From Wolbachia endosymbiont strain TRS of Brugia malayi (GTDB lineage Bacteria; Pseudomonadota; Alphaproteobacteria; Rickettsiales; Anaplasmataceae): a stretch of 32,000 nucleotides of DNA. The notes beneath the pieces were generated by a model. The model saw nothing but the letters and a program-made list of their open reading frames with translations, was not told where the DNA came from and did no database searches. Both the position numbers and the translations under genes were made by a program. The DNA lies in NCBI RefSeq assembly GCF_000008385.1, contig NC_006833.1, positions 960,001-992,000 of the forward strand, given 5' to 3'. Numbering within the stretch: the first letter of the stretch is position 1; each line of letters starts with the position of its first letter. This document shows, piece by piece, positions 11,041 to 30,761 of this stretch.

Positions 11041-13131
11041 TCACATTAACTCATCACTTTTGTAGAACATTTCATTGAAATCACTTATAGTTCCAAAATC
11101 CTGATCTTTGATAAACAGATGATTATTTGTAACATAAGCTTCAGAAAGAGTAATTGGCTTTCCATCAAGCTTAGAATCTTGTATATAAATTTTATTATAC
11201 AGAGCTATCATTTGATCATAATTGTATTTTCCAGTAGTATACTGACTACTTAAGTTTTGATAAAAATTATCTATATCTTGATCTTGAACCTGTAGCACCG
11301 CCTTATATTTACCAGTTTCAATAAATTCACCTGTCTTTATTTTCAAGGGGTGTTGTAGATAATCTACTTCATTATCCTCCATACTGTCTATAACGCTTGC
11401 TATGACGGCTTCTTCTTGTTTATTTTTATCATCTTCTTCTAGCGATCCTTTATCCCTATTTCTTTCCTCATTAGCAGGTTGTTCAGTCTGACTCTCTTGC
11501 ATATCTGATTCATTTTCATGCCTTAAATGCCCTTCGCCGTTTAACTGAATCTTGACCCAATCTTTAAACTCCTGATTATAGCCCTTCAGCTTAGTTAGAA
11601 AATCCTCAAATAATTTATTATCTTGAGGTCTATTTGTACTGTGCATAGAAAGGCTTTTCAAAAAACTATCAAGGAGATCTGGATGTTTATGCTCAAGAAA
11701 TTTTATTACCTGCTCTGCTTTTGAATAGTAATAATCTCCTTGGTTATTATTACGTAATATCTCGTCAGGTTTTAGAAACTTGCGTTGTATCGTAGAAAGA
11801 GCTTCAATATCCTCACGATCATTGACGTGCTTACCGTTTTCCACGCTTGCCATATAGTTAGCAACTCCTTCATGCATAGCTTTAGACAAAACATCGCCCG
11901 TACCATAATAAGAATTAATAATAGTCAAAGCGTGCCCCAACTCGTGCTTTAAAGTTTTACATGAGTAATCAAATTGATCCTGTAAGTAAAAATAAACATG
12001 AATTTCCGAACCGCGACCTTGGAGTGTTAAACCAGAGTGATCTTTAGCATCAATGTTCAACTCCTTAAGGTAATCTTCATAGTTGCTCCTTGTATTAAAT
12101 ACGAAAATGTTGACCTTACTTGGTATATTGTGCCAAGGCTGAGAATTATTAATGCCAAATGCTGAGTCAAAATCTCTTATGGCACCCTTGACAGTGTCTT
12201 TTATATTACTCAGCTTGTCCTGATTTAATTCTTTATTATCATACTTTATGTTTATTTGAAGCTTATGTTCGCTGAGGGTAATAACTTCACTGTCTGGTAC
12301 AAGATCTGCGGCAACTTTATTACCACCTCCTACATCCATCCACTCCTTAAATTCTCTCTCAATTCCTGAATTATTTAAAAGCTGCTTGAACCTCAACACT
12401 GCTTGTTCTTTACCAGAAGATATTTCAGTAAGCAGTTGTTTTATGAATTGAGGATGTTTTTCTTGCAAGAACGTTACTAAGCAATCTGCCATTCTATAAC
12501 CATTAGCCATATTAGCTATTTTATAAGGTGTGTTGTATCCCGATTCTTGCATCTCATCGTATGTCTCTTTTATATAGTGCATATCATGAGTACTCTTCTT
12601 CTTAGCTGCATCATAACTCCACATAAAAAGCTTCACACCAGTACGTAAGACTTCAGGTACTTCATTCAAATTGCCAGTAGCGTACTCAAGAAATGCATCA
12701 CTCATCTTTTCCATTAAAATTTTAGACTTCGCACAAAATAAACCATTTACATCTCCAATAATGAAAGTCTTTGCTATTGTACCGTCAGCTTCATGTGCCC
12801 TTACCGTTCCACCACCCCATAGTTCATTATGGTCTTTGCCACCTGAAAGCTCCTTTATGTAAGCTTTATAATCGTCATAACTTTTCAGCACATAAAGTTG
12901 CAATTTCACTGGGCCGCTATTATAGTTTTTCTGTGAATAGAAATTCTCAGACCAAGCCTCATAAGTATCTTTTACAATTTGCTTTATATAATCAGGCGTA
13001 TAGCTTATTAGTCCACCATATCTCACTTCTACTATAAGCTCATTGCTTATCACTACATCCTCTTTATTTGGAAACAGTTTTTCAATCAGCATTTGTGATT
13101 TATCATGCCCAAAATTTGTTTTGAATGCCAT
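11041..13131 (-). CDS. tandem collagenase-like (gluzincin HEXXH) protein, candidate secreted effector
   Basis: 696 aa with no N-terminal signal peptide. HELGH is encoded at 11932-11946, with a downstream MHEGVANYMA that could supply the third zinc-ligand Glu. The layout FVFNTRSNYEDYLKEL...HELGHAL...HEG resembles the M9 collagenase catalytic subdomain. The N-terminal half is a diverged copy lacking HEXXH. An acidic linker and a roughly 130-aa C-terminal domain of unknown type follow. Confidence 0.6.
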   Translation of the reverse strand: MAFKTNFGHDKSQMLIEKLFPNKEDVVISNELIVEVRYGGLISYTPDYIKQIVKDTYEAWSENFYSQKNYNSGPVKLQLYVLKSYDDYKAYIKELSGGKDHNELWGGGTVRAHEADGTIAKTFIIGDVNGLFCAKSKILMEKMSDAFLEYATGNLNEVPEVLRTGVKLFMWSYDAAKKKSTHDMHYIKETYDEMQESGYNTPYKIANMANGYRMADCLVTFLQEKHPQFIKQLLTEISSGKEQAVLRFKQLLNNSGIEREFKEWMDVGGGNKVAADLVPDSEVITLSEHKLQINIKYDNKELNQDKLSNIKDTVKGAIRDFDSAFGINNSQPWHNIPSKVNIFVFNTRSNYEDYLKELNIDAKDHSGLTLQGRGSEIHVYFYLQDQFDYSCKTLKHELGHALTIINSYYGTGDVLSKAMHEGVANYMASVENGKHVNDREDIEALSTIQRKFLKPDEILRNNNQGDYYYSKAEQVIKFLEHKHPDLLDSFLKSLSMHSTNRPQDNKLFEDFLTKLKGYNQEFKDWVKIQLNGEGHLRHENESDMQESQTEQPANEERNRDKGSLEEDDKNKQEEAVIASVIDSMEDNEVDYLQHPLKIKTGEFIETGKYKAVLQVQDQDIDNFYQNLSSQYTTGKYNYDQMIALYNKIYIQDSKLDGKPITLSEAYVTNNHLFIKDQDFGTISDFNEMFYKSDELM

Positions 13132-13214
13132 ATTTACCTCTTAAAAACTTTTACTATAAATAAGCTTTAAAAAAGATCTATTAATTATGGGTTCAATTCT
13201 TGATTGACTCACTT

Positions 13215-14193
13215 ATTACCATTTCCTTTTGCACAATTAGATAACTCTATAGACAATTGATCAACACTAAAAAGCTGATTCTTAGTGTTAAAATATTTAG
13301 CATAACTGTCAGAATTAAATTCAGATATTGGTAGAAACCAATTTTAAGTTCAGGGTAAGAACTCTTGTTAAGCACAAAAAACAAGTTTTCAAATCAACCA
13401 GCATATTACTACCAGGACTAACGAAATTAAAATATTTATCGCCTTCCAATCCTTCATGTGTCGATATTCCACTATATAGTATTTACTCGAATCAAGAATG
13501 ACTTCCCTCCGCCACGTTGTAAAATTACTGCTGAACGTCCATCAACTATATCATAACCTTTTACCACTTTAAATAAGGTAATATACCTCTTTCTATAAAC
13601 CCTTTTACTTCCTCATTCTTTCAATCTAACTCTTTTTCCGCTTGTTTTTCTCTCTTACCAAATTCACCTTCTTTCTTAGCATTTTCATTTTGTATCTGCA
13701 AAAATATATCTCTTGTATGGTTAAGCCATTTGCATTGCTTAGAAAGTTATCTAGCACATTTGATGCAATGGGTGACAATTCGCCCTGATCATTACATGCT
13801 TTTTCCTTTGTCTTATATTGATGATTGGGATTGTAGATTACAGCCAGAGGGTAAAATCCATAATCTACAATTGGCGTTCCATCAGATGATAGTTCTATTG
13901 AAAATCCGTTATGATCGAGTGGAAGATTGGAAACTAAATATCTATCATATCACCTCTGATGCATAGCTCACTTCCACCACTGTGTCCGCTATATCTACTA
14001 TAGTAGATATAAAAATTTTCATAATTAAAATCTAAGTAGTCATTTAGATTATCAAATTGAACTGTATTGCCAAGCTTTTCACGTAAAAGATTTTTGTTCT
14101 CATTTGTAAGCTTTACACGCACAGAAAAATAATACCGGTCTTAAGTTCGCCTTTTTCTACTTGAAAGTTCAAAGTAATTGTACCGTTAATCAT
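13215..14193 (-). pseudogene. frameshifted remnant of an unknown ~330-codon gene
   Basis: ATG at 14193 gives MINGTITLNFQVEKGELKTGIIF. Continuing requires at least 6 frame changes or stops: VKLTNENKNLLREKLGNTVQFDNLNDYLDFNYENFYIYYSRYSGHSGGSELCIRGD / YDRYLVSNLPLDHNGFSIELSSDGTPIVDYGFYPLAVIYNPNHQYKTKEKACNDQGELSPIASNVLDNFLSNANGLTIQEIYF / GYDIVDGRSAVILQRGGGKSFLIRV / THEGLEGDKYFNFVSPGSNMLVDLK / FNSDSYAKYFNTKNQLFSVDQLSIELSNCAKGNGNK-stop. GHSGG resembles a GxSxG nucleophile elbow, but no family was assigned. Confidence 0.5.
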
Positions 14194-14415
14194 CAGTAAT
14201 CCCCACAAATCGTATAAATTTATCAACTACCTTATTTATCAATTATAAGGTGTGTACTACAAAAAATATGTTAAACATTAAGATTTTTTCTATATCCAGA
14301 CAAGGCAACTACAATTTGTGATTTCAGCGCATAACACTAAAATCCAGAAAAAACATGTTTAGGTTGCTATGTGAACGATATTAACGGTCGTTATACAACT
14401 TGTACAGCAGCTCCA

Positions 14416-14835
14416 CTACAATATTTGTTTACTGCTTGTCTGTAGGTATCCTACACACCACCTAATGTTACCTGCAACTCCTGACAACAGCACAGCAGTC
14501 GCAATCATTCCGATAGCGGCAATTTTAGGCATAATCCCTATTGCAACTAGCGTAGCTCCTATAGCACCAAACAATAATGCTAAGCCTATTGTCCATCCCC
14601 CCGAAAAAGTTCTAGAAGGTTGTTGTTTTTGTGAAGAAATTATGCTTGTGTACTATAAGACAGTTGCTAGGTGCTTTGTTTTCTGTGCAAATTATTATTA
14701 CTTTCATCACTTGCAGACGTTTTTTGAAATGGAGTTGTACTACCTGTGAACATTTGTGAATCACTATCTATTGATTATTCCTGTTATATAATAGTCTTAC
14801 TTGTAATCGATTGTTCCAAAATTTGTTCATCATTA
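14416..14835 (-). pseudogene. remnant of small S/T/Q-rich protein with C-terminal two-helix hydrophobic hairpin
   Basis: Minus-strand pieces lie in different frames: NDEQILEQSITSKTII / IDSDSQMFTGSTTPFQKTSASDESNNNLHRKQST-stop-QLSYSTQA / ISSQKQQPSRTFSGGWTIGLALLFGAIGATLVAIGIMPKIAAIGMIATAVLLSGVAGNIRWCVGYLQTSSKQIL-stop (stop at 14416-14418). The 94-aa plus-strand ORF at 14465-14749 is its antisense shadow. Confidence 0.45.
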
Positions 14836-14848
14836 TTTACATTTTTAT

Positions 14849-15918
14849 CTATTTTTGATTGAAATGACTCTTAAGCACTACACTATAACCTACATTATCA
14901 ATTGTTGTTTCCAAAGTTGGATCTGGATCTTGATAGTAAGTTATAGTAGCAGTAGATACTTCAGGTTTACCTTTTATCGTTCTTTTTACCAGCTTTTTCT
15001 TTTCTATTTTATAAATATTAAACTGATCAGAAAAACTGAAGGCTAATCTATCTTTAAATACCTACTCAAAATCGTTCACAAAGCTGTTTTTATACATACA
15101 ATGTGCTGTTCTACTACCTGGACTGTACATATCCACAATTCTTATTGTAGTTTTTTGTTTTCTCGAAACTATTAACCTTTTCGTTAGTGAGATACATTAT
15201 ACTTTTAGCTATCGCGGGATCGGTACTGCTAACTAAACTTCTAATATACTCTTTCATCTACTACTATGACTCTAATATAAAATCTCTCACGTCCGTATTC
15301 ATTATCTATAACAGAACCTATTGTTGTTCTTCCAATTCTATTGTCTAATAACTATGGAACAGTAGATAACCTTTATATGCTTCTCGCACATCCTTATCAT
15401 TTAAAAGTACTGTTGCCCTTTCTACATGTTATCTAAGCTTCTTTTCTGATACTTATTGAGATACCTTTTACTAAAGTTACCGTGATCACAATTATAACAT
15501 TTTATCACCATTTCCACATATCGAGATGCATCAAGCAAATATGAACTCCTACTATGCAGTTCAACAGTCGATACTGCATTTTGACTTACTGTATTTGGGC
15601 AAAAGGCATGTTCATAAGCTTTGTTTCTAGCTTTCTCAAATGTTAACCACCTTCAACAACAGGTATTCCCCTTATTTTCATTTCATTTTTCGGTAACAAT
15701 TGGTCATTTGTAAAAGCAAGTGCTGAAAAAAGCGTCCAAGCATTGGTACCATGAGCAGCAAAAGTTCTCTTATCAATAAGGTATTTTCTTTTAAAATTCT
15801 CATTCATTTTAAACAACTGCTTTTCCAATTAGATTGGTCTTCTGTTCTTCATAAAGTTCTTATGAAGTTCAGAAAATCCTATTAGTTTCTGTACATGAGA
15901 CCCTTGCATATTTACCAT
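14849..15918 (-). pseudogene. frameshifted/nonsense-disrupted remnant of an unknown ~350-codon gene
   Basis: ATG at 15918 gives MVNMQGSHVQKLIGFSELHKNFMKNRRPI, then an in-frame TAA, then LEKQLFKMNENFKRKYLIDKRTFAAHGTNAWTLFSALAFTNDQLLPKNEMKIRGIPVVEGG-stop. Later segments lie in other frames: LLDNRIGRTTIGSVIDNEYGRERFYIRVIVVDERVY and IRIVDMYSPGSRTAHCMYKNSFVNDFE-stop-VFKDRLAFSFSDQFNIYKIEKKKLVKRTIKGKPEVSTATITYYQDPDPTLETTIDNVGYSVVLKSHFNQK-stop (14849-14851). Confidence 0.5.
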
Positions 15919-15991
15919 CTTAGCTAAATAAATTTATATATACTAGTTTAACAAACCAATCCACAAAAATCAACTCAAAACTCTTAAAACA

Positions 15992-23224: not shown

Positions 23225-23722
23225 TTAAAAAAGGATCTTGACTGGCAGTAGTTCCTGAATCTTCTGTAGCATGCTCCTTGTATGAAGTAGAAGGTTCTTT
23301 ACACTCCGGAAAGTTACTCTCCTGTACAGAGTATTACATTGCCCACAGAAACTTCTTAACGTCTCTTCAGCAGATGAATTTAAAATTTGTATAATAGACC
23401 TTTCACTTTGTTCTTTTGGTGATTGATCAATCCTAGAAATCAACCCAGAAACCCTACTATCTTCTTTTTCAGCTTCACTTTTTATTTTACTTTTTATACT
23501 TGCAATGTTACCTTGGTCGATTTCCTTTTTTGTTATATTGAATGAACTTGCAATACCTTGATACTTGATCTTGCAATCGCCACTACCAACTATACAAAGA
23601 GTAATAGAGTCAGATAGCTCACTTGCAGCCTGCTTACGTATGGCGTAAGCCAAATAATTATCATGGTATTCAACGTTAAATTGTTATTCTATTAACTTAG
23701 AAATTTTACTTTTTAGAGACAT
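23225..23722 (-). pseudogene. unknown 165-codon gene with premature in-frame TAA at codon 13
   Basis: Strong SD TAAGGAGGGG (23729-23738, minus strand), a 6-nt spacer, then ATG at 23722. Translation is MSLKSKISKLIE-TAA(23686-23684)-QFNVEYHDNYLAYAIRKQAASELSDS... The ORF-track 142-aa version only begins at a TTG at 23653. Confidence 0.45.
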
Positions 23723-23876: not shown

Positions 23877-26672
23877 CTATAGCCCTAATAATTTCTTTTT
23901 GATTTCTTCCTCTATCTCCCTAGTTATACCGGGATAAAGTTTTTCAATTAAACTGCTAACACTAACATTACTATTCTGGTCCACAAGAGCATTAATTATT
24001 TCTTCCACTTTTTTACCATCAATCTGTACAGATTTAATAATAATATAACCAGGAGAGCCTCTGCCATAGGTTTGATTAATGTCATCAATACAGCCACCTG
24101 CACCAGGATTACTGCTCCTAAAACCACTGCTACATTTTACCTTTTCATACTTGATTTTACTATCTTTTATATATGCTACTTGATTGTCTTCAGTAAAATT
24201 TTTATCTGTTACTATTGTTGGATTTCCTAATATCTTTAAATTACCTAAATTATTATGGATCTTCGTCTTCTTATACTCTTTTCCACCGTACATCCTATAT
24301 TTACCACCACCTGCAACAGTAATTAAATCTTTACAGTTTGCTTCTGAAGAGTCTTTGCACATTTTTATGAAAGTTGGTCCACCATCCTTATTGGATATAT
24401 GACTTGTGAGTCTACCACCCCCCTCTGTAGCTTGAGCTCTAATTATAGGATATTCAGGATCAACTTTTAATTGAATTTTGATATAATCTCCTGGCATTCC
24501 TGGTCTACTTTCCATAGAGTGAGCTGCATTTTTTACATGACCTGCTTCACCACCTCCCCATGCTTCTATTTCAATATAACCGTATTTTGATAAATCACCT
24601 GTATAATTATTATCACCTAAAAAGGTATAAGGTTGCGGCAAATTTTTATTTTTCAGCCGTTTGTTTATTGTATCCAGCACCTTTTTCTTCACACTCTCCA
24701 AGTCAAGCTTACATAATTTATCAGCGTAAAAGACCTCTGTTCTGTTTACCTTAATTGGTCGATCTTTTAATTGTGTGCACTTCTGTACTTCATTTTTTTC
24801 ATTTCTCAATGTTCTGCCATTTTTGTCTTTACAATCCACTTCCTCATATCTTAAGTAAAATGGACTACCATCTTTTTTATTTAAATATTGTTCTAAATCT
24901 GTCAATCTATATACTACTTTCAGTCCTTTATTAGATGCAAATGCTTTATCTATTTCATCATTTCTTTCTACACAGTAACTGCACTTTTCTTTCTCCTGTT
25001 TATTTTCGTCAGGGAAGAAAACATACCCTTGCTTGTTGAATATCATTTCGTCTAACTGTTTTTGAGGTCTTTTTAACAGGTCAATTATCTCCTTTTCCTT
25101 GCTTGGAAGATAATAGAACTGATTTGATTCCTTTGAATAAACAGCATTGTATTTAATATACCTCGCTCCTATTGATTTTAGCGATATTATCTCACCATCT
25201 CTCTCAAGAACAAACTCTTCTGGCTCTGGTTTCCAGCCAGAAAGGCAAAGCATTTTACCATTAGAATTTTCTTGATCTTTTACTCTCATATATCTCACTT
25301 CTATCTTTGGTCGTCCCATATTATCCAATTCCCACTTAGTAGATCCAATTTCACTGTTTTCCTTGGAATTTGTTATACTGTAGCTCTTACCATCAGGAAA
25401 CTGGATCCCAATATTAGGAGTAAGCCCATATTTTTCTAAAACTTCAAACTGAGGGTTCTTTCTTAAGATACCTTCTATAACATCAGTGATATTACCTTCA
25501 TTATTATTACTATTAGTTGTTTTCTTTACTATCCTCGGTTTGACTACTTTCAAAGATAGAGGGCCAATGTTTGTTGAAGAACCAGTATTAACATAGAAAG
25601 CATTTGCACCCATCTTCATTTTTACCTCCAGTGTATTTTCATCTACTATCTCTACCCTTTCAGGTTCTGGAGCAGGTGGGGCCGGAAAACAGCTGACAGA
25701 CTGGAGATTTTCTTTATCCATATTTTGAGTTCCATAGTATTCAGCACAGAGCTGATCCTTTTTTCTATAGGTCTTGAAGTAATAAGTAGTACCCTTACCA
25801 TCTTCAACCTCGTGTGAAGTTCTTTGGAAATCCAATTCTTTTTTTTCTAATTTACCAATGATTACCCTAACTCTTGGGTTAAAGTAATCATTGTCCTTAT
25901 TTGTTATAGGGACAATTTTAACCTGTGGAAGTAACATTCCAAGTTGTTCACAGAATGGAGGTGGACCAGGTGCAAGTGGTATAGGAGCACACTTTATCTT
26001 TTGCTTTCCTTCATTCCATGATGAACAAGTATCACAAGCTTTTCCCATATTCCCTAGATGGAAAATGTTTTCTCCTGAAAACACTCTAGCACCCCATGAA
26101 GAAATTCCTGACATACAAGACCCTTTTTGACTGCAAGCGCATATTTTAGGAGAATTAGAAAATTTTACTTTCTCTTCATCAGTAACATTATCTGCCCATT
26201 CCCACTTAAGGCCCTTCGCAATTCCTTCTTTGATCTTTTCACTGTTATCTGTCCTAATCGTCCCATCAGCTAATATTTTATCTCCTTCCCAATCGATAAA
26301 AACCGCAGCAGAAACTCCAGCACCTGTACTTTGTGTTCCATATATCTGGCGGCAGGATGTTCCACTAGGTAATATATAACAATTATTTTTTCCTTCGTAA
26401 TCACAGACCTGAATCTTTGGGTCAAAATAACCATCAGTTCCTTGGTCTTTTACCTGCCTTACTGTAATGTATTGGTATAATCTTTCATCAACCTGAAAAC
26501 TTCCAGCAGTACCAAAACTAAAAATTTTTATAAAACCCTCTAAAGCTTTTTTACCCCCAGCTTCAAATTTAGTATTATTCTCTACAAAAGGCGGGCAATC
26601 AGCATATCCTTGACATGAGAGATAAAATGTCAAAAAGAATATCAATAAAAAATTAAGTTTTACACTTTCCAT
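23877..26672 (-). CDS. 931-aa exported Cys-rich protein with C-terminal glycine-rich domain, unknown function
   Basis: N-terminal signal peptide MESVKLNFLLIFFLTFYLSCQGYADC, with a possible lipobox-like LSC. About 24 Cys and no further TM segments. Pro-rich hinges (PLAPGPPPF, PAPPAPEPE). The C-terminal ~240 aa carry spaced Gly clusters (EAWGGGEAGH, TEGGGR, KDGGPT, VAGGGKYRMYGG, NPGAGGC, YGRGSPGYIIIK). The start overlaps the VirB4-like stop by 20 nt. Confidence 0.75.
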   Translation of the reverse strand: MESVKLNFLLIFFLTFYLSCQGYADCPPFVENNTKFEAGGKKALEGFIKIFSFGTAGSFQVDERLYQYITVRQVKDQGTDGYFDPKIQVCDYEGKNNCYILPSGTSCRQIYGTQSTGAGVSAAVFIDWEGDKILADGTIRTDNSEKIKEGIAKGLKWEWADNVTDEEKVKFSNSPKICACSQKGSCMSGISSWGARVFSGENIFHLGNMGKACDTCSSWNEGKQKIKCAPIPLAPGPPPFCEQLGMLLPQVKIVPITNKDNDYFNPRVRVIIGKLEKKELDFQRTSHEVEDGKGTTYYFKTYRKKDQLCAEYYGTQNMDKENLQSVSCFPAPPAPEPERVEIVDENTLEVKMKMGANAFYVNTGSSTNIGPLSLKVVKPRIVKKTTNSNNNEGNITDVIEGILRKNPQFEVLEKYGLTPNIGIQFPDGKSYSITNSKENSEIGSTKWELDNMGRPKIEVRYMRVKDQENSNGKMLCLSGWKPEPEEFVLERDGEIISLKSIGARYIKYNAVYSKESNQFYYLPSKEKEIIDLLKRPQKQLDEMIFNKQGYVFFPDENKQEKEKCSYCVERNDEIDKAFASNKGLKVVYRLTDLEQYLNKKDGSPFYLRYEEVDCKDKNGRTLRNEKNEVQKCTQLKDRPIKVNRTEVFYADKLCKLDLESVKKKVLDTINKRLKNKNLPQPYTFLGDNNYTGDLSKYGYIEIEAWGGGEAGHVKNAAHSMESRPGMPGDYIKIQLKVDPEYPIIRAQATEGGGRLTSHISNKDGGPTFIKMCKDSSEANCKDLITVAGGGKYRMYGGKEYKKTKIHNNLGNLKILGNPTIVTDKNFTEDNQVAYIKDSKIKYEKVKCSSGFRSSNPGAGGCIDDINQTYGRGSPGYIIIKSVQIDGKKVEEIINALVDQNSNVSVSSLIEKLYPGITREIEEEIKKKLLGL

Positions 26673-29007
26673 AGAACACTGGTAACCACTTATTCACTTC
26701 TTCTCCTTTTTCTTTTATTGCTTCATACATATATTTTATAGTCTCTCTGTTAGCTGAGAGCACATGTATTTCTTGTATATTCTTCAAATCTAAATTTAAA
26801 GTTACTAATCCTTTATACTGCTTTATCAAAAATAAACCTTCTTGAGTTGGTGTTTGCAAAATTATATTCAGCTCCTCTTTTGATAGGGAAAATGCTTTCA
26901 TATACAACCTATTTGCATTGAAGTTCGGCATTAAAATTCTTGTATCAACATGCTTATCCAAATATTGAGTAAATTCGCTAGCAAATGCTAGGTTTAAGTT
27001 CTCAGTACTCAGAATTACCACAACGTTTAATTCTGTCATCCTTTGCATCCAATTATCGAACCCTTCCTCTGTAGGAAAAATACTACTTATCTCCCATGCT
27101 TCATCCAAAACAAGTATTGCAGGTGAGCCATCACATTGTGCCTCAAAAGAGTATAAAAAATAGTAAAGTATCACGGACATACATTCTTTGTGCTTTGTGA
27201 GGTTTGCAGTGTTGAGAGATATAGTCTTTATTTTCCAGTCAATATCTGATTCATCACTATCCTGGAATAAGTAAGCAAACTCACCATCACCACACCATTT
27301 ACTTATCTTACCTTTCAAGAGCAAGAGCATCTCAGAAATTCGCGAAATAGAACGCGATTCTCTAGGTATAGCAAATATAGAATCTACAACTTTTTTTATC
27401 TTTTCTTTTATACCTACCAAGCTAGTATCGGCCACCATTCTTTTGATCAGTTCAACCAGCATACTACGGTTGGAAGCACTATCTTCAATGTTTAATGGGT
27501 TAAATTTTAGGCTTTTATTCTTATATTTCGGATCGATTATATAATACTTACCACTCACTGCTTTGGTAAAAATTATTGATTTTCCGGTGTTATCTAATAT
27601 GATAATTCTAGGATTAAATTTTCTTGACTCTGATAATAGAAAATTAATCAATGAGGTCCTACCCGAATTTGGAGCTCCAAGTATCGTAGTGTGACCATTG
27701 TTTTTCTTTCCATGAAAATTAAAGAAGTAAGGACTCCCCTTTTTTGAAAAAAAGACTGTTACTGCTTCTTTCCACCTTCCACCTTTTAATGTACCTGAAG
27801 TAAAATCATGTAGCATAGCAAAACTGCAAGCATATTTTGCTAATATATTTTTCGGTTGTGTAACAAAAGCAAAATTACCTGGAAGTTGTGCCCAAAAATG
27901 ATTTTCCATATGAAGGTCAGTTCTGAACATCATCAAACCAATTAACGACATCACGGAGGATAAACTACTAATATTCTCGGCCAATCTATTTCTATCATCT
28001 GCAAAAATCGTAAAAATAATTTTCTGTTGGCAAAAGTCTATAGTAGAAGTTCCTTCAAGTTCTATTATTTCTTTTATTTCTGAATTCCTAAGCAAGGTAT
28101 TATCTTCACTGACTTGCAGCATATTAATTTGTTTTTTAAATTCTTTCATCGCTTTGTTATTACTAGTAAATATTATTATTTCTGTAATAATGAGCTCAGA
28201 GTCAAGTTGCAAGCACCTGTCTATATTCCCCAGGGGAATTTCACGATATTCCTTTATACAAAAAACAGAACCAAACTTCTGCTGATTTTCAAATATTGTT
28301 TGAAACGTGTTAAAACCAAAGGCTATCTTTAAATTTTTAATATATTGCGATAGATCCCTTTCACATATTGGATGATCTTTGTGCGTTAATGTAACAATAT
28401 AATGGAGAAACTCTATCATTTCAGAATATACTTTATCTCCATTAAACCTCAGAGCCAGCTTTTTGGCCCCAAAAGGTTCTAAGTCACTTTGAATTAAGTC
28501 AGTTACCCTCTGTAATTCCTGATGGTTTTCTTGTAAAGATAGCTTATGCTTATTTCTTATCCCACCAAAAAAAAATGAATTATTACTATGCTTATTAAAA
28601 TCGCTAACCAATATTACAATGTATAACTCGTTTATATATCGTAATTTACTATTAGTGAGTTTATCAAGCCACGTTGAGTGTAGCTTATCAGAAAAGTCTC
28701 CAGTTTTATTCCATTTCAAACTCAGTTTATTGCGCTTCCTAACAGTATGAATCCAAACGGTAAAATATAGGCTATCAATATTTTTTGATATGCTTTTTCT
28801 AATCTCAGTTCTAAGGTCACTGTAGTTATCAGCAGAGGAGTAATCTTCTAATTTTATTATCTTTAACAACTCCCCCTGTTTTGTCAGTATAGTTTCTTCA
28901 TCGTAATGACAAGCATAAGGAATAAAATCTAAATCAATACTCTCTATTAATGCTAAGTTGTTCTTTTTTTCAAATTTAGGATTAATTGTTGGTGTTTTTA
29001 CCTGCAT
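26653..29007 (-). CDS. virB4: VirB4/TrbE-family type IV secretion ATPase, divergent paralog (Walker A GxxxxGRT)
   Basis: 784 aa. N-terminal FIPYACHYDEETILTKQGELLKIIKLE is typical of VirB4. Walker A is LGAPNSGRTS, with Arg where the canonical Lys sits. Walker B is PAILVLDEAWE. No VirB3-like TM region is fused. Confidence 0.85.
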   Translation of the reverse strand: MQVKTPTINPKFEKKNNLALIESIDLDFIPYACHYDEETILTKQGELLKIIKLEDYSSADNYSDLRTEIRKSISKNIDSLYFTVWIHTVRKRNKLSLKWNKTGDFSDKLHSTWLDKLTNSKLRYINELYIVILVSDFNKHSNNSFFFGGIRNKHKLSLQENHQELQRVTDLIQSDLEPFGAKKLALRFNGDKVYSEMIEFLHYIVTLTHKDHPICERDLSQYIKNLKIAFGFNTFQTIFENQQKFGSVFCIKEYREIPLGNIDRCLQLDSELIITEIIIFTSNNKAMKEFKKQINMLQVSEDNTLLRNSEIKEIIELEGTSTIDFCQQKIIFTIFADDRNRLAENISSLSSVMSLIGLMMFRTDLHMENHFWAQLPGNFAFVTQPKNILAKYACSFAMLHDFTSGTLKGGRWKEAVTVFFSKKGSPYFFNFHGKKNNGHTTILGAPNSGRTSLINFLLSESRKFNPRIIILDNTGKSIIFTKAVSGKYYIIDPKYKNKSLKFNPLNIEDSASNRSMLVELIKRMVADTSLVGIKEKIKKVVDSIFAIPRESRSISRISEMLLLLKGKISKWCGDGEFAYLFQDSDESDIDWKIKTISLNTANLTKHKECMSVILYYFLYSFEAQCDGSPAILVLDEAWEISSIFPTEEGFDNWMQRMTELNVVVILSTENLNLAFASEFTQYLDKHVDTRILMPNFNANRLYMKAFSLSKEELNIILQTPTQEGLFLIKQYKGLVTLNLDLKNIQEIHVLSANRETIKYMYEAIKEKGEEVNKWLPVFYGKCKT

Positions 29008-29037
29008 ACAATATCATGCGTATTTAATAAAGATATT

Positions 29038-29415
29038 CTACAAGTGATACTTAATTTTTATCTTTTTTTTACTATCAGGTTGCACTTTTACAAAGTTAAA
29101 CTTTTCTTTCAAGTAATCCGTTGTCTTTTCTATGCTACCTAACATCATAACCAGTACACCAAACATTATCATAAAAAAGATCAGGCCCCTAAACACTATT
29201 GCAAGTACCACTGCAGCTATACATAGCCCTATGATTATTGAAGGACTCATATTTTCTACAGTACCTTTTACTGACAATGAAGAAACAAAATTTTTTACCG
29301 TTTCTTGTACATCCTTTAACTCATCGCTCACCGAACCTGCTTCGCTAGAATATGATGAAAAAATAAAGCTTAACAGGGCTATAAAAATCAAAACTTTATT
29401 CAATTGAATGTGCAT
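29038..29415 (-). CDS. VirB2/TrbC-like pilin-type protein
   Basis: 125 aa from the ATG at 29415; the ORF track starts one codon earlier at a TTG. Cleavable-looking signal peptide (LIFIALLSFIFSSYSSEA), then two hydrophobic helices separated by FRG (IIIGLCIAAVVLAIVFRGLIFFMIMFGVLVMMLG) and a basic tail. It ends 30 nt upstream of the VirB4-like start. It lacks the VirB3 TRP-type motif. Confidence 0.55.
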   Translation of the reverse strand: MHIQLNKVLIFIALLSFIFSSYSSEAGSVSDELKDVQETVKNFVSSLSVKGTVENMSPSIIIGLCIAAVVLAIVFRGLIFFMIMFGVLVMMLGSIEKTTDYLKEKFNFVKVQPDSKKKIKIKYHL

Positions 29416-29525
29416 CAACTAAATACCTTCCAAACATCTTCTGATTATAATAACCTTCATATCAATAGGCAAGGGATGAATTTACTTATTCACTATAAGT
29501 AAACACATGTTTAATTTTTACCACC

Positions 29526-30761
29526 TTAAACATGCAGTAGGCTTCTTTCATTATTAATAACAGGACTCGAATTGGTGTACATTAATTTACTTGAAGGAGG
29601 GAGAGTTAAATACCATACAGCTACTGCTGCTGTAGCAAACACTACAGCTATAACAGACAATCCTAGAAACAATGCTCTTGATTTTATTACTACTGCCCCA
29701 ACAAAACACCCAATTGCTAAAAGAGCACAACCTGTTGTAAATATACCGTAAAATTCTCTGTTACTGAGTTGTTCTTTAGGTAGAATATTTTCACCTTTTT
29801 TTTCATTCATAGGAAGTTTCTGCATGGTAATATCTTCTACGTTCTTTTTCTTCTTAGGAGGTTGTACTGGACTTACCTTGCTGACCTGGTTTTTGTTTTC
29901 TTGCACCTGCAGCTCTTCTCTTGCAGTCTGGTCTAGTTTCATTTGGTTCTCATTTTCTTCTTTTTGTAGATTGTTATCTTCTTCAGCAGAGCTTAATATT
30001 GAGCTTACATTGCTCCTTTCACTACCTAACGGTGACTCTAAACCGTCTTCACTTAATCCAGGCAAACTTACTCCACTATCTCCACCACTACCATTATTGA
30101 GTTCAGAAGCATTTGTTTCTGGTTCTAAAGTATCCATTTTTGTAAGTAATTTTTCTCCAAAATTAAATTGACTATTATCTCTTAGATTGGGTAAGCTTCT
30201 CCAACATTTTAGACTTGTTTCTTCACATGTATTACCTGATTCTGAATTTTCAGCAGTGCAACTAAGGGTATTGTCTGCCCCATTTGCAGATTGTTCATTT
30301 GTTTCTGCATTAGAATGACTTTCATTACTGTTCTTGCTAACAGCATCTGAAGTTATTAATTTCATAATTATTTGTTCTATTTTTATTTTTTCTATTAGGT
30401 TTAGTTCTTTTGATTTTATTATTTCTCTTTTCAACGCTGGAAGAAAGTGTTGGATATAATTATTATAATATTTCTCTTGTTCTATCAGTAATTCTCCTAA
30501 TTTAGTTAATACCTCAGGACTAGCTCCTTTCTTGAACAACTTTTTGCATTTCCTGGGAGTCTTATCTTGTCCACTCTCTTGATTTTCTCGATAGTCTTTT
30601 TTTGTTACCCTTTTTTTTATAACTTTGCACAATTCTTCTGTTTTTGATGCTGAATAACACTTTACCCCTTCCAAGGCCCGTGAATTTTTAGTAGAATTGT
30701 CAAAAGAGTTGTAAGGATTATTCCCTGTTAAATTAAAAACTATCGCTACATTATCATCCAC
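29526..30761 (-). CDS. 411-aa low-complexity protein with C-terminal two-helix hydrophobic hairpin
   Basis: GTG start at 30761. A long Ser/Asn/Glu/Lys-rich segment that is probably disordered, then a basic patch (PPKKKKN), then FYGIFTTGCALLAIGCFVGAVVIKSRALFLGLSVIAVVFATAAVAVWYL. No signal peptide and no recognisable enzymatic motif. Confidence 0.6.
   Translation of the reverse strand: MDDNVAIVFNLTGNNPYNSFDNSTKNSRALEGVKCYSASKTEELCKVIKKRVTKKDYRENQESGQDKTPRKCKKLFKKGASPEVLTKLGELLIEQEKYYNNYIQHFLPALKREIIKSKELNLIEKIKIEQIIMKLITSDAVSKNSNESHSNAETNEQSANGADNTLSCTAENSESGNTCEETSLKCWRSLPNLRDNSQFNFGEKLLTKMDTLEPETNASELNNGSGGDSGVSLPGLSEDGLESPLGSERSNVSSILSSAEEDNNLQKEENENQMKLDQTAREELQVQENKNQVSKVSPVQPPKKKKNVEDITMQKLPMNEKKGENILPKEQLSNREFYGIFTTGCALLAIGCFVGAVVIKSRALFLGLSVIAVVFATAAVAVWYLTLPPSSKLMYTNSSPVINNERSLLHV

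Follow-up and report, generated by a model that had tools for sequence, protein, structure and literature searches.

The rvh type IV secretion system (T4SS) includes a second VirB4 copy that Gillespie and co-workers assigned to the orthologous group RvhB4-II (VirB4b), which is without conserved ATPase sites, evolves faster than RvhB4-I and has a role given as unknown (PMC4676284; PMC2653234). In the Wolbachia endosymbiont strain TRS of Brugia malayi (wBm), Li & Carlow (2012) named the gene wBm0750 virB4-2, distinct from wBm0797, and placed it among three scattered duplicates lying outside both T4SS operons, wBm0279-0284 and wBm0793-0798 (PMC3518464). The entry-triggering protein EtpE, an invasin found on the bacterial surface according to the EtpE papers, is called 'unique' to Ehrlichia in reviews. 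We analyzed a stretch of the wBm genome (contig NC_006833.1, positions 960,001 to 992,000; hereafter the window, 32,000 nucleotides numbered from its first letter) in which virB4-2 overlaps the gene for a 931-aa protein, WBM0749, and two smaller genes, WBM0751 and WBM0752, lie upstream.

That this islet holds the virB4-2/rvhB4-II gene of the Wolbachia T4SS is already known, and its neighbours were noticed earlier, not explained. What appears to be new is that the EtpE core forms a widespread family reaching Wolbachia, with WBM0749 as its member there, and that this family is tied to RvhB4-II. In the openly searchable literature, which leaves subscription papers outside the search, we found no paper linking EtpE to virB4-2.

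The initial annotation, made from the letters of the window, had presented the four genes as an orphan module. This is not the case, since the supposed ATPase gene is the already published wBm0750. Its picture of four co-oriented, tightly packed genes on the minus strand is accurate in coordinates, spacing and overlap: 107 nt separate WBM0752 from WBM0751, 30 nt separate WBM0751 from virB4-2, and the virB4-2 stop overlaps the WBM0749 start by 20 nt, which suggests that the synthesis of these two proteins may be translationally coupled.

The EtpE core in WBM0749

WBM0749 has a signal-peptide-like N-terminus and 24 cysteines, 20 of which are invariant across 46 homologues, so that its first description as a Cys-rich secreted protein beginning within the end of the ATPase gene stands, with export as a prediction. 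Its orthologs (915-1022 aa) are found in all Wolbachia supergroups and are annotated as hypothetical; Foster et al. 2005 counted Wbm0749 among probable surface proteins. Searching a profile of 18 orthologs against 1.8 billion representatives returned 64 relatives, about 30 of them full-length (680-1860 aa), which share the signal peptide, about 20 invariant cysteines and the motifs GFFxPxIxV, PxAPxPPPFC, CDFxxIEAWGGG and PGxGGC. A one-genome-per-species scan places members of this family in Ehrlichia canis, E. muris, E. ruminantium, E. mineirensis, Neoehrlichia mikurensis, Ca. N. lotoris, Anaplasma spp., Ca. Mesenet longicola and several uncultured Anaplasmataceae/Rickettsiales metagenome-assembled genomes (MAGs).

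The NCBI name of the Ehrlichia homologues is 'entry-triggering protein EtpE' and they pass the corresponding model NF049896 (cut-off 1500 bits) with 2589.7 bits for E. canis and 1655.8 bits for E. ruminantium, while Anaplasma and MAG intermediates match this model at 6e-103 and 1e-25. BLASTP aligns WBM0749 with E. canis EtpE in two colinear segments (E 1e-10 and 2e-8). At the profile level, hhalign joins the Wolbachia family (A1) to EtpE (A7) with 99.5% probability (E 1.3e-22) over 637 columns, from A1 columns 86-943 (wBm residues ~87-890) to A7 columns 132-811 (E. canis residue 149 onward), and the identity between WBM0749 and EtpE is about 23-30%. WBM0749 itself has no NCBIfam match at E<=1 and so does not reach the NF049896 equivalog cut-off; direct scans against Pfam, NCBIfam and PHROGs gave sub-threshold noise only. 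Taken together, these alignments indicate that WBM0749 is a distant, shortened homologue of the conserved N-terminal ~800 residues of EtpE. For the initial annotation, membership of the protein in a well-characterised family unrelated to secretion would have spoken against the module. WBM0749 does belong to a characterised family, that of an invasin, and the objection thus applies in part; however, the genes of this family in turn go together with virB4-2.

WBM0749 ends about 50 residues past its glycine-rich domain where the Ehrlichia proteins carry 700-1100 residues more, and it is without both the variable middle of EtpE and EtpE-C. The EtpE papers describe EtpE-C as the sole part shown to bind host DNase X and trigger entry, and as not conserved even between Ehrlichia species. 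According to the same papers the conserved N-terminal part does not mediate binding and is poorly accessible to antibody on live bacteria, and this poor access fits the role of an anchoring core.

An AlphaFold2 model of WBM0749 computed from 46 sequences is mostly beta-rich and multi-domain, with a mean predicted local distance difference test score (pLDDT) of 77.7; an earlier model from 18 Wolbachia sequences was poor (pLDDT 54) and the distant homologues brought the improvement. The glycine-rich domain (C-terminal ~200 residues) reaches pLDDT 80-93. Pfam Gly_rich_2 (PF21722) is weak in the wBm protein, at 17 bits against a cut-off of 24.3, and above cut-off in the Ehrlichia and Anaplasma homologues (29-39 bits). 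With Foldseek, this domain matched a cyanophage Pam3 fibre (7ypx_A, E 4e-4) and the mycobacteriophage Bxb1 tail tip (9d93) in the PDB, and 109 models of viral proteins at E<=1e-3, the best of them at 5e-8 and the majority from minor tail proteins of mycobacteriophages or from glycine-rich domain-containing proteins. This is a strong fold match, and the modelled C-terminal domain would be of the phage minor-tail or tail-fibre distal type.

What WBM0749 shares with phage fibre proteins is the AWGGG motif and the way in which its last ~200 residues fold; the likeness is limited to this one domain, at 12-17% identity, whereas the rest of WBM0749 matches no phage protein. A prophage origin of the domain was rejected, as the gene is vertically conserved beside virB4-2 and flanked by housekeeping genes; it is chromosomal and outside any prophage. 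The first ~650 residues of the model matched no solved structure in the Foldseek search against the PDB. Likeness of WBM0749 to VirB5, VirB6, TraN, autotransporters or beta-barrel anchors was likewise rejected, as far as Foldseek sees.

Two sequence clusters contain entries from eukaryotic assemblies. In the 90%-identity cluster of WBM0749 there are 182-aa proteins that carry the annotation of Brugia pahangi nuclear genes; their contigs measure 0.2 and 10.9 Mb, and they probably stem from Wolbachia DNA inserted into the nematode genome or from contamination. A 415-aa protein assigned to Hevea brasiliensis (rubber tree) falls in the same cluster as the Anaplasma ovis homologue, probably through contamination of the assembly.

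Pairing with a degenerate VirB4 copy

The wBm0750 protein matches Pfam CagE_TrbE_VirB (PF03135) with 101.9 bits (cut-off 21), and its residues 26-783 are colinear with residues 17-817 of R388 TrwK (E 2e-54). Its scores for TIGR00929 VirB4_CagE (443.7 bits, cut-off 643.1) and the equivalog NF010473 (416.2 bits, cut-off 1050) stay below the family thresholds, which marks it as a divergent paralog by these models. Walker A, GQSSSGKT in TrwK, is GAPNSGRT in wBm0750, with the catalytic lysine replaced by arginine, and Walker B is retained (ILVLDEAW). The gene agrees with the definition of RvhB4-II in its altered Walker A, in being a second VirB4 copy and in its position away from the virB3-virB6 and virB8-virD4 operons. 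It was initially called a VirB4-like ATPase, of which the VirB4 part is borne out by the domain and the TrwK colinearity; with its degenerate P-loop, the protein is probably not an ATPase.

To describe the neighbourhood of this gene in relatives, the open reading frames (ORFs) of 25 loci were scored with hidden Markov models of four families: EtpE-like, TrbC, VirB4 and the 126-aa proteins of Wolbachia. A pattern drawn from a 9-sequence alignment, which excludes Wolbachia, returned 15 loci, and these are not an exhaustive census. In each of the 16 loci examined, a VirB4 copy is followed by an EtpE-like gene; these loci represent Wolbachia, Mesenet, Ehrlichia, Neoehrlichia, Anaplasma and uncultured Rickettsiales. 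Where an EtpE-like gene adjoins T4SS genes, the order on a single strand is zero to four TrbC/VirB2 genes, VirB4 and one to three EtpE-like genes, with one to four TrbC/VirB2 genes being usual in the relatives. The locus tags of E. chaffeensis agree (VirB4-2 is ECH_1041 and EtpE is ECH_1038).

Of the 16 VirB4 genes located ahead of EtpE-like genes, 15 are without the Walker A lysine, and several have also lost the Walker B DE. Judged by this alignment, the partner of the EtpE-like gene is nearly always a degenerate VirB4 copy. The remaining VirB4 gene, on contig_216 of an uncultured MAG (L002 5683-8004), keeps an intact Walker A, GPMNSGKT, and may represent a less degenerate state of the paralog.

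In a supergroup B Wolbachia and in Ca. W. massiliensis the order is the same as in wBm: NMO, the 411-aa homologue, the 126-aa homologue, VirB4 and the 931-aa homologue. The 20-nt overlap of VirB4 and the EtpE-like gene is found in three Wolbachia (wBm, group B and W. massiliensis) and in the Anaplasmataceae MAG GLO_00122, and an overlap of 4 nt in two other MAGs. The four-gene order described at the outset is thus kept in these Wolbachia, and the pair of VirB4 and large protein extends across the Anaplasmataceae and into deeper MAGs; the comparison indicates that the coupling of the two is ancient within the order. The initial statement that virB2 paralogs stand beside the second virB4 in Anaplasmataceae was also correct (PMC3556328, PMC7789307).

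Ehrlichia, Neoehrlichia and Anaplasma have two to three tandem EtpE-like paralogs of 750-1970 aa downstream of virB4-2 (loci L003 6666-20774 and L009 7413-17821, and loci L013, L015 and L016). The first alone passes the EtpE model, and the second E. ruminantium paralog scores 167 bits.

It is conceivable that the islet is what remains of a system in decay, in which a dead VirB4 copy lies among unrelated neighbours with no joint function. The lost ATPase motifs, the TIGR00929 score below cut-off and the truncated look of the downstream gene WBM0748 would agree with such decay, which we nevertheless consider barely credible. RvhB4-II is intact, full-length and 87-89% identical between Wolbachia supergroups, a sign of strong constraint. 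The 931-aa protein keeps its 20 invariant cysteines family-wide, all the genes are expressed, and the arrangement is older than the split of the Anaplasmataceae genera.

Upstream genes, expression and surroundings

WBM0751 fills the slot held by TrbC/VirB2 pilin genes in relatives, and it resembles these pilins in size (113-133 aa for the relatives' TrbC), in gene position and in having a signal peptide and two hydrophobic helices with a short basic loop. A signal-like N-terminal segment is followed by a polar stretch of ~35 residues, two hydrophobic helices with 'RG' between them and, at the end, a tail rich in Lys. The long Lys-rich C-terminal tail and the lack of sequence similarity set it apart from TrbC. 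The family is Wolbachia-only (42 clusters), and Mesenet and the related GLO MAG have no small gene at that slot. No match to PF04956 or to NCBIfam VirB2 was found at E<=1, PHROGs matches were likewise sub-threshold, a comparison by hhalign of the family (A2, 19 sequences) with six TrbC proteins from syntenic loci (A5) gave a probability of 0.2%, and the PDB contained no related chain. Membership in the VirB2 family was rejected on these sequence grounds. The initial name, VirB2-like pilin, therefore holds for topology and gene position and fails for sequence homology; as topology alone does not establish VirB2 membership, we call WBM0751 a pilin-slot protein of pilin-like topology and at most a putative pilin.

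WBM0752 is a low-complexity, acidic protein with 65% polar or charged residues over positions 1-355 and two adjacent hydrophobic helices at residues ~341-389 by hydropathy, which agrees with its first portrayal as a disordered protein with a C-terminal transmembrane hairpin. It matches no Pfam, NCBIfam or PHROG family. Positional homologues have 28% identity in group B Wolbachia and 38% over 101 aa in W. massiliensis; the same position in Mesenet and the GLO MAG lacks one, and none was found outside Wolbachia. By these comparisons it looks like a Wolbachia-specific, fast-evolving addition, and its bilobed hairpin invites comparison with vacuole-membrane proteins of other intracellular bacteria.

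The islet genes are expressed in adult worms. RNA-seq counts per nt in adult females are similar for WBM0752 (~0.8), WBM0751 (~1.0) and WBM0749 (~0.8), which suggests, and does not prove, that the three belong to one transcription unit. The regulator wBmxR2 bound a 'virB4-2 promoter' probe in gel shifts in vitro (Li & Carlow, PMC3518464). This probe lies almost wholly inside the WBM0751 ORF and spans in addition the 30-nt gap and the first 21 nt of virB4-2, so that wBmxR2 may bind within a gene, or else the true promoter may be located upstream of WBM0751.

Downstream, 223 nt beyond WBM0749, WBM0748 matches NF049850, 'WBM0748 family T4SS-associated protein', with 189.3 bits (cut-off 150) over profile positions 24-130 of 144. 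The initial statement that no other T4SS parts are nearby is thus right for the core parts and overlooks this gene. A 12-codon ORF (MSLKSKISKLIE, followed by a stop) lies just upstream of WBM0748 (region 23225-23722), and together with the partial match it indicates that WBM0748 may be N-terminally disrupted and C-terminally divergent. The RNA-seq counts per nt of WBM0748 are 3-4 times below those of WBM0752, WBM0751 and WBM0749. In a group B Wolbachia and in W. massiliensis it is not adjacent to the EtpE-like gene, and insertion sequence elements are found there instead. WBM0748 is probably a separate transcription unit.

Pertussis toxin (exported by the Ptl system of Bordetella) and F-plasmid TraN are both exported by Sec and rich in disulfides, and at the cell surface they either require a T4SS or work together with one. 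By analogy, WBM0749, with its Sec signal and many cysteines, recalls the periplasmic, disulfide-bonded pertussis toxin subunits, and it could be cargo released to the host through the T4SS from the periplasm, perhaps along with WBM0751 and WBM0752. WBM0752, fast-evolving, without signal peptide and with a hairpin like that of inclusion-membrane proteins, would suit this role. Carpinone et al. 2018 short-listed WBM0748, WBM0749, WBM0751 and WBM0752 as effector candidates for their T4SS association and noted the detection of WBM0749 in worm proteomes (PMC6160203). However, worm proteomes do not separate bacterial from host compartments, and the text of that paper reports no phenotype or translocation for the four candidates. 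Effectors that depend on VirD4 are normally cytoplasmic and without Sec signals, and the Ehrlichia homologue remains on the bacterial surface. We consider release as cargo quite unlikely.

The remaining 14 ORFs of at least 100 aa in the window are housekeeping genes by Pfam (citrate synthase, FabF, MurA-like, ThyX, PriA, RecR, PdhC, NMO and others), and VirB3, VirB6, VirB8-11 and VirD4 are not among them, as the initial annotation had noted. No Rfam family was found in the window, and promoter-like or terminator-like matches occur in it at chance frequency and were given no weight. On neither strand of a 2.9-kb region (13132-15991) does any ORF reach 100 aa, and Rfam matches are absent there; genes may have decayed in this region. 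Next to it, a 696-aa ORF on the minus strand (11041-13131) has a weak, above-threshold match to Peptidase_M9 (collagenase family; 29.7 bits); such a protein is unusual in an endosymbiont and might be a host-matrix-acting enzyme.

Table 1. Features of the islet, in positions of the window
Feature	Position	Strand	Description
WBM0752	29526..30761	-	411 aa; exact match to wBm AAW71340
WBM0751	29038..29418	-	126 aa from TTG; 125 aa from ATG at 29415, as annotated in wBm; 100% identity to wBm protein
wBm0750 (virB4-2 / RvhB4-II)	26653..29007	-	784 aa; full-length VirB4 paralog
WBM0749	23877..26672	-	931 aa; EtpE-family relative; identical to wBm protein
WBM0748	23225..23653	-	142 aa; NCBIfam NF049850 match
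Overlap of virB4-2 and WBM0749	26653..26672	-	20 nt, ATGGAAAGTGTAAAACTTAA; read from sequence
Walker A of RvhB4-II	27655..27678	-	GAPNSGRT; alignment to TrwK
Glycine-rich domain of WBM0749	24018..24603	-	residues ~690-885; motif IEAWGGGEAG
Published 'virB4-2 promoter' probe	28987..29335	n/a	both primers are exact window matches

Proposed surface assembly and comparison with known systems

We lean towards reading the islet as a branch of the rvh T4SS for surface structures, which makes use of a core channel with its genes elsewhere, with RvhB4-II as a non-catalytic platform on which the pilin-type and EtpE-like proteins are mounted. We judge it probable, if only just, and the physical partnership between the islet proteins is something that we infer. 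RvhB4-II would sit at the base of the rvh machine in the inner membrane and serve there as a subunit for assembly or docking; the channel genes of this machine lie elsewhere in the genome. The pilin-slot and EtpE-like proteins would be exported by Sec and disulfide-bonded in the periplasm, and RvhB4-II would help to assemble or display them at the cell surface, so that the islet would be a pilus/adhesin surface-organelle branch and not a substrate-pumping unit. WBM0749 would be the minimal form of its family, with a buried EtpE-N-like core and a distal fibre-like binding domain, without the lineage-specific extensions to which Ehrlichia EtpE owes its DNase X-binding tip. WBM0752 would be a Wolbachia-specific add-on, possibly a secreted or vacuole-membrane protein. 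The suggestion in the initial annotation of a minimal accessory module borrowing a core channel is viable in that the core lies at wBm0279-0284 and wBm0793-0798 (PMC3518464), but the islet is a known part of the T4SS and not an unknown orphan.

Three published observations lend plausibility to surface assembly: with its active site mutated, VirB4 of A. tumefaciens still promotes the formation of T-pili (cited in PMC2653234); a long T4SS pilus is built by wMel, which has no VirB5 (PMC12407924); and Ehrlichia EtpE is a surface protein with its conserved N-terminal part buried. A bolder version would make EtpE-family proteins the dedicated partners of RvhB4-II across the Anaplasmataceae and their relatives. 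RvhB4-II, catalytically dead, would have been kept as a platform to load the Sec-exported, disulfide-rich EtpE-like adhesin and VirB2-type pilins onto the rvh T4SS, the EtpE-like protein would be a tip or surface adhesin replacing the missing VirB5, and WBM0749 would be a minimal, ancestral-like form and a Wolbachia host-contact protein. We offer this version tentatively and regard it as rather improbable.

Several observations weigh against surface assembly on an RvhB4-II platform. The link between RvhB4-II and the EtpE family is putative both physically and genetically. In Ehrlichia, Neoehrlichia and Anaplasma a spacer of 0.5-1.5 kb separates VirB4 from the EtpE-like genes, and two genomes have further EtpE-like paralogs that are distant from VirB4 genes. 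In Rickettsia, rvhB4-II is retained with no vir genes beside it (PMC2653234), and RvhB4-II therefore does not need an EtpE-like partner everywhere. Beads coated with EtpE-C are sufficient to reproduce the entry function of EtpE (EtpE papers), and the unmatched N-terminal 650 residues of WBM0749 offer nothing structural that ties them to the T4SS. WBM0751 shows no detectable sequence homology to VirB2, and similar RNA-seq depth is the one observation that suggests co-transcription, the promoter-like matches being at chance level.

The unlinked paralogs lie between gatB and atpD (L021 7001-11338; L022 3683-9052), with two tandem copies in one genome; in the other genome a gene of FlgK-like, flagellar hook-associated type lies just upstream of the paralog.

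The gaps between virB4-2 and etpE in Ehrlichia and Anaplasma, the unlinked paralogs and the entry of EtpE-C beads into cells also speak for a linkage that is regulatory or historical only. WBM0749 would then be an autonomous Sec-exported outer-membrane adhesin or invasin that is co-regulated with the T4SS in the infectious stage, by regulators of the EcxR or wBmxR type, and never touches RvhB4-II. EtpE has indeed been described as an outer-membrane invasin without T4SS involvement, and wBmxR2 binds DNA just upstream of virB4-2, which makes shared regulation plausible. Such an explanation is possible but, in our view, doubtful. The pair is kept in all 16 loci over very divergent, heavily rearranged genomes, and the coding overlaps of 20 or 4 nt in six lineages imply coupled synthesis, beyond co-regulation. 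The VirB4 copy in the pair is moreover nearly always degenerate, and this degenerate copy is not known to have another role.

A conserved, coupled partner would be the first concrete candidate function to explain why derived Rickettsiales all keep a VirB4 with a dead ATP site. EtpE is a candidate for vaccines and the one Ehrlichia invasin that has been defined; its route to the surface and its anchoring there become testable, as does the question of what Wolbachia uses for contact with host membranes and what caps or decorates the wMel pilus when VirB5 is absent. The EtpE core is spread over Anaplasmataceae, Wolbachia and uncultured Rickettsiales, contrary to its standing in reviews as unique to Ehrlichia. 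Filarial Wolbachia are drug targets, and a conserved, expressed surface protein is of practical interest. Should the linkage be only regulatory, a conserved 'hypothetical protein' will still have been usefully re-annotated.

Compared with known systems, wBm0750 is the published rvh gene RvhB4-II itself, full length, with degenerate NTP-binding residues, apart from the two main T4SS operons and belonging to a group preceded by pilin genes in Anaplasmataceae. The publications retrieved treat the gene as isolated and leave the overlapping EtpE-like gene and the small upstream ORF unmentioned. The Rickettsia rvhB4-II stands alone (PMC2653234), unlike wBm0750. Set beside the VirB2/TrbC pilins and the VirB4-VirB8-VirB5-VirB2 pilus route of A. 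tumefaciens, with the canonical order B2-(B3)-B4-B5, the EtpE-like gene falls in the position of VirB5; VirB5 is a helical protein of ~220 aa whereas WBM0749 is beta-rich, 931 aa long and without detectable relation to it. With Ptl/pertussis toxin and with TraN, the Cys-rich outer-membrane adhesin of the F-type T4SS, the likeness is one of analogy only, as the T4SS subtypes differ and WBM0749 has no TraN or toxin match in Pfam at E<=1.

EtpE of Ehrlichia is likewise among the closest known systems. WBM0749 stops soon after the glycine-rich domain, without the strain-variable middle of ~950 aa and without EtpE-C, and the host is a nematode or arthropod and not a mammalian phagocyte. The two proteins have in common the signal peptide, the Cys-rich conserved N-terminal core with the motifs GFFxPxIxV, PxAPxPPPFC, IEAWGGG and PGxGGC, the Gly_rich_2 domain in equivalent position, and a gene just downstream of virB4-2.

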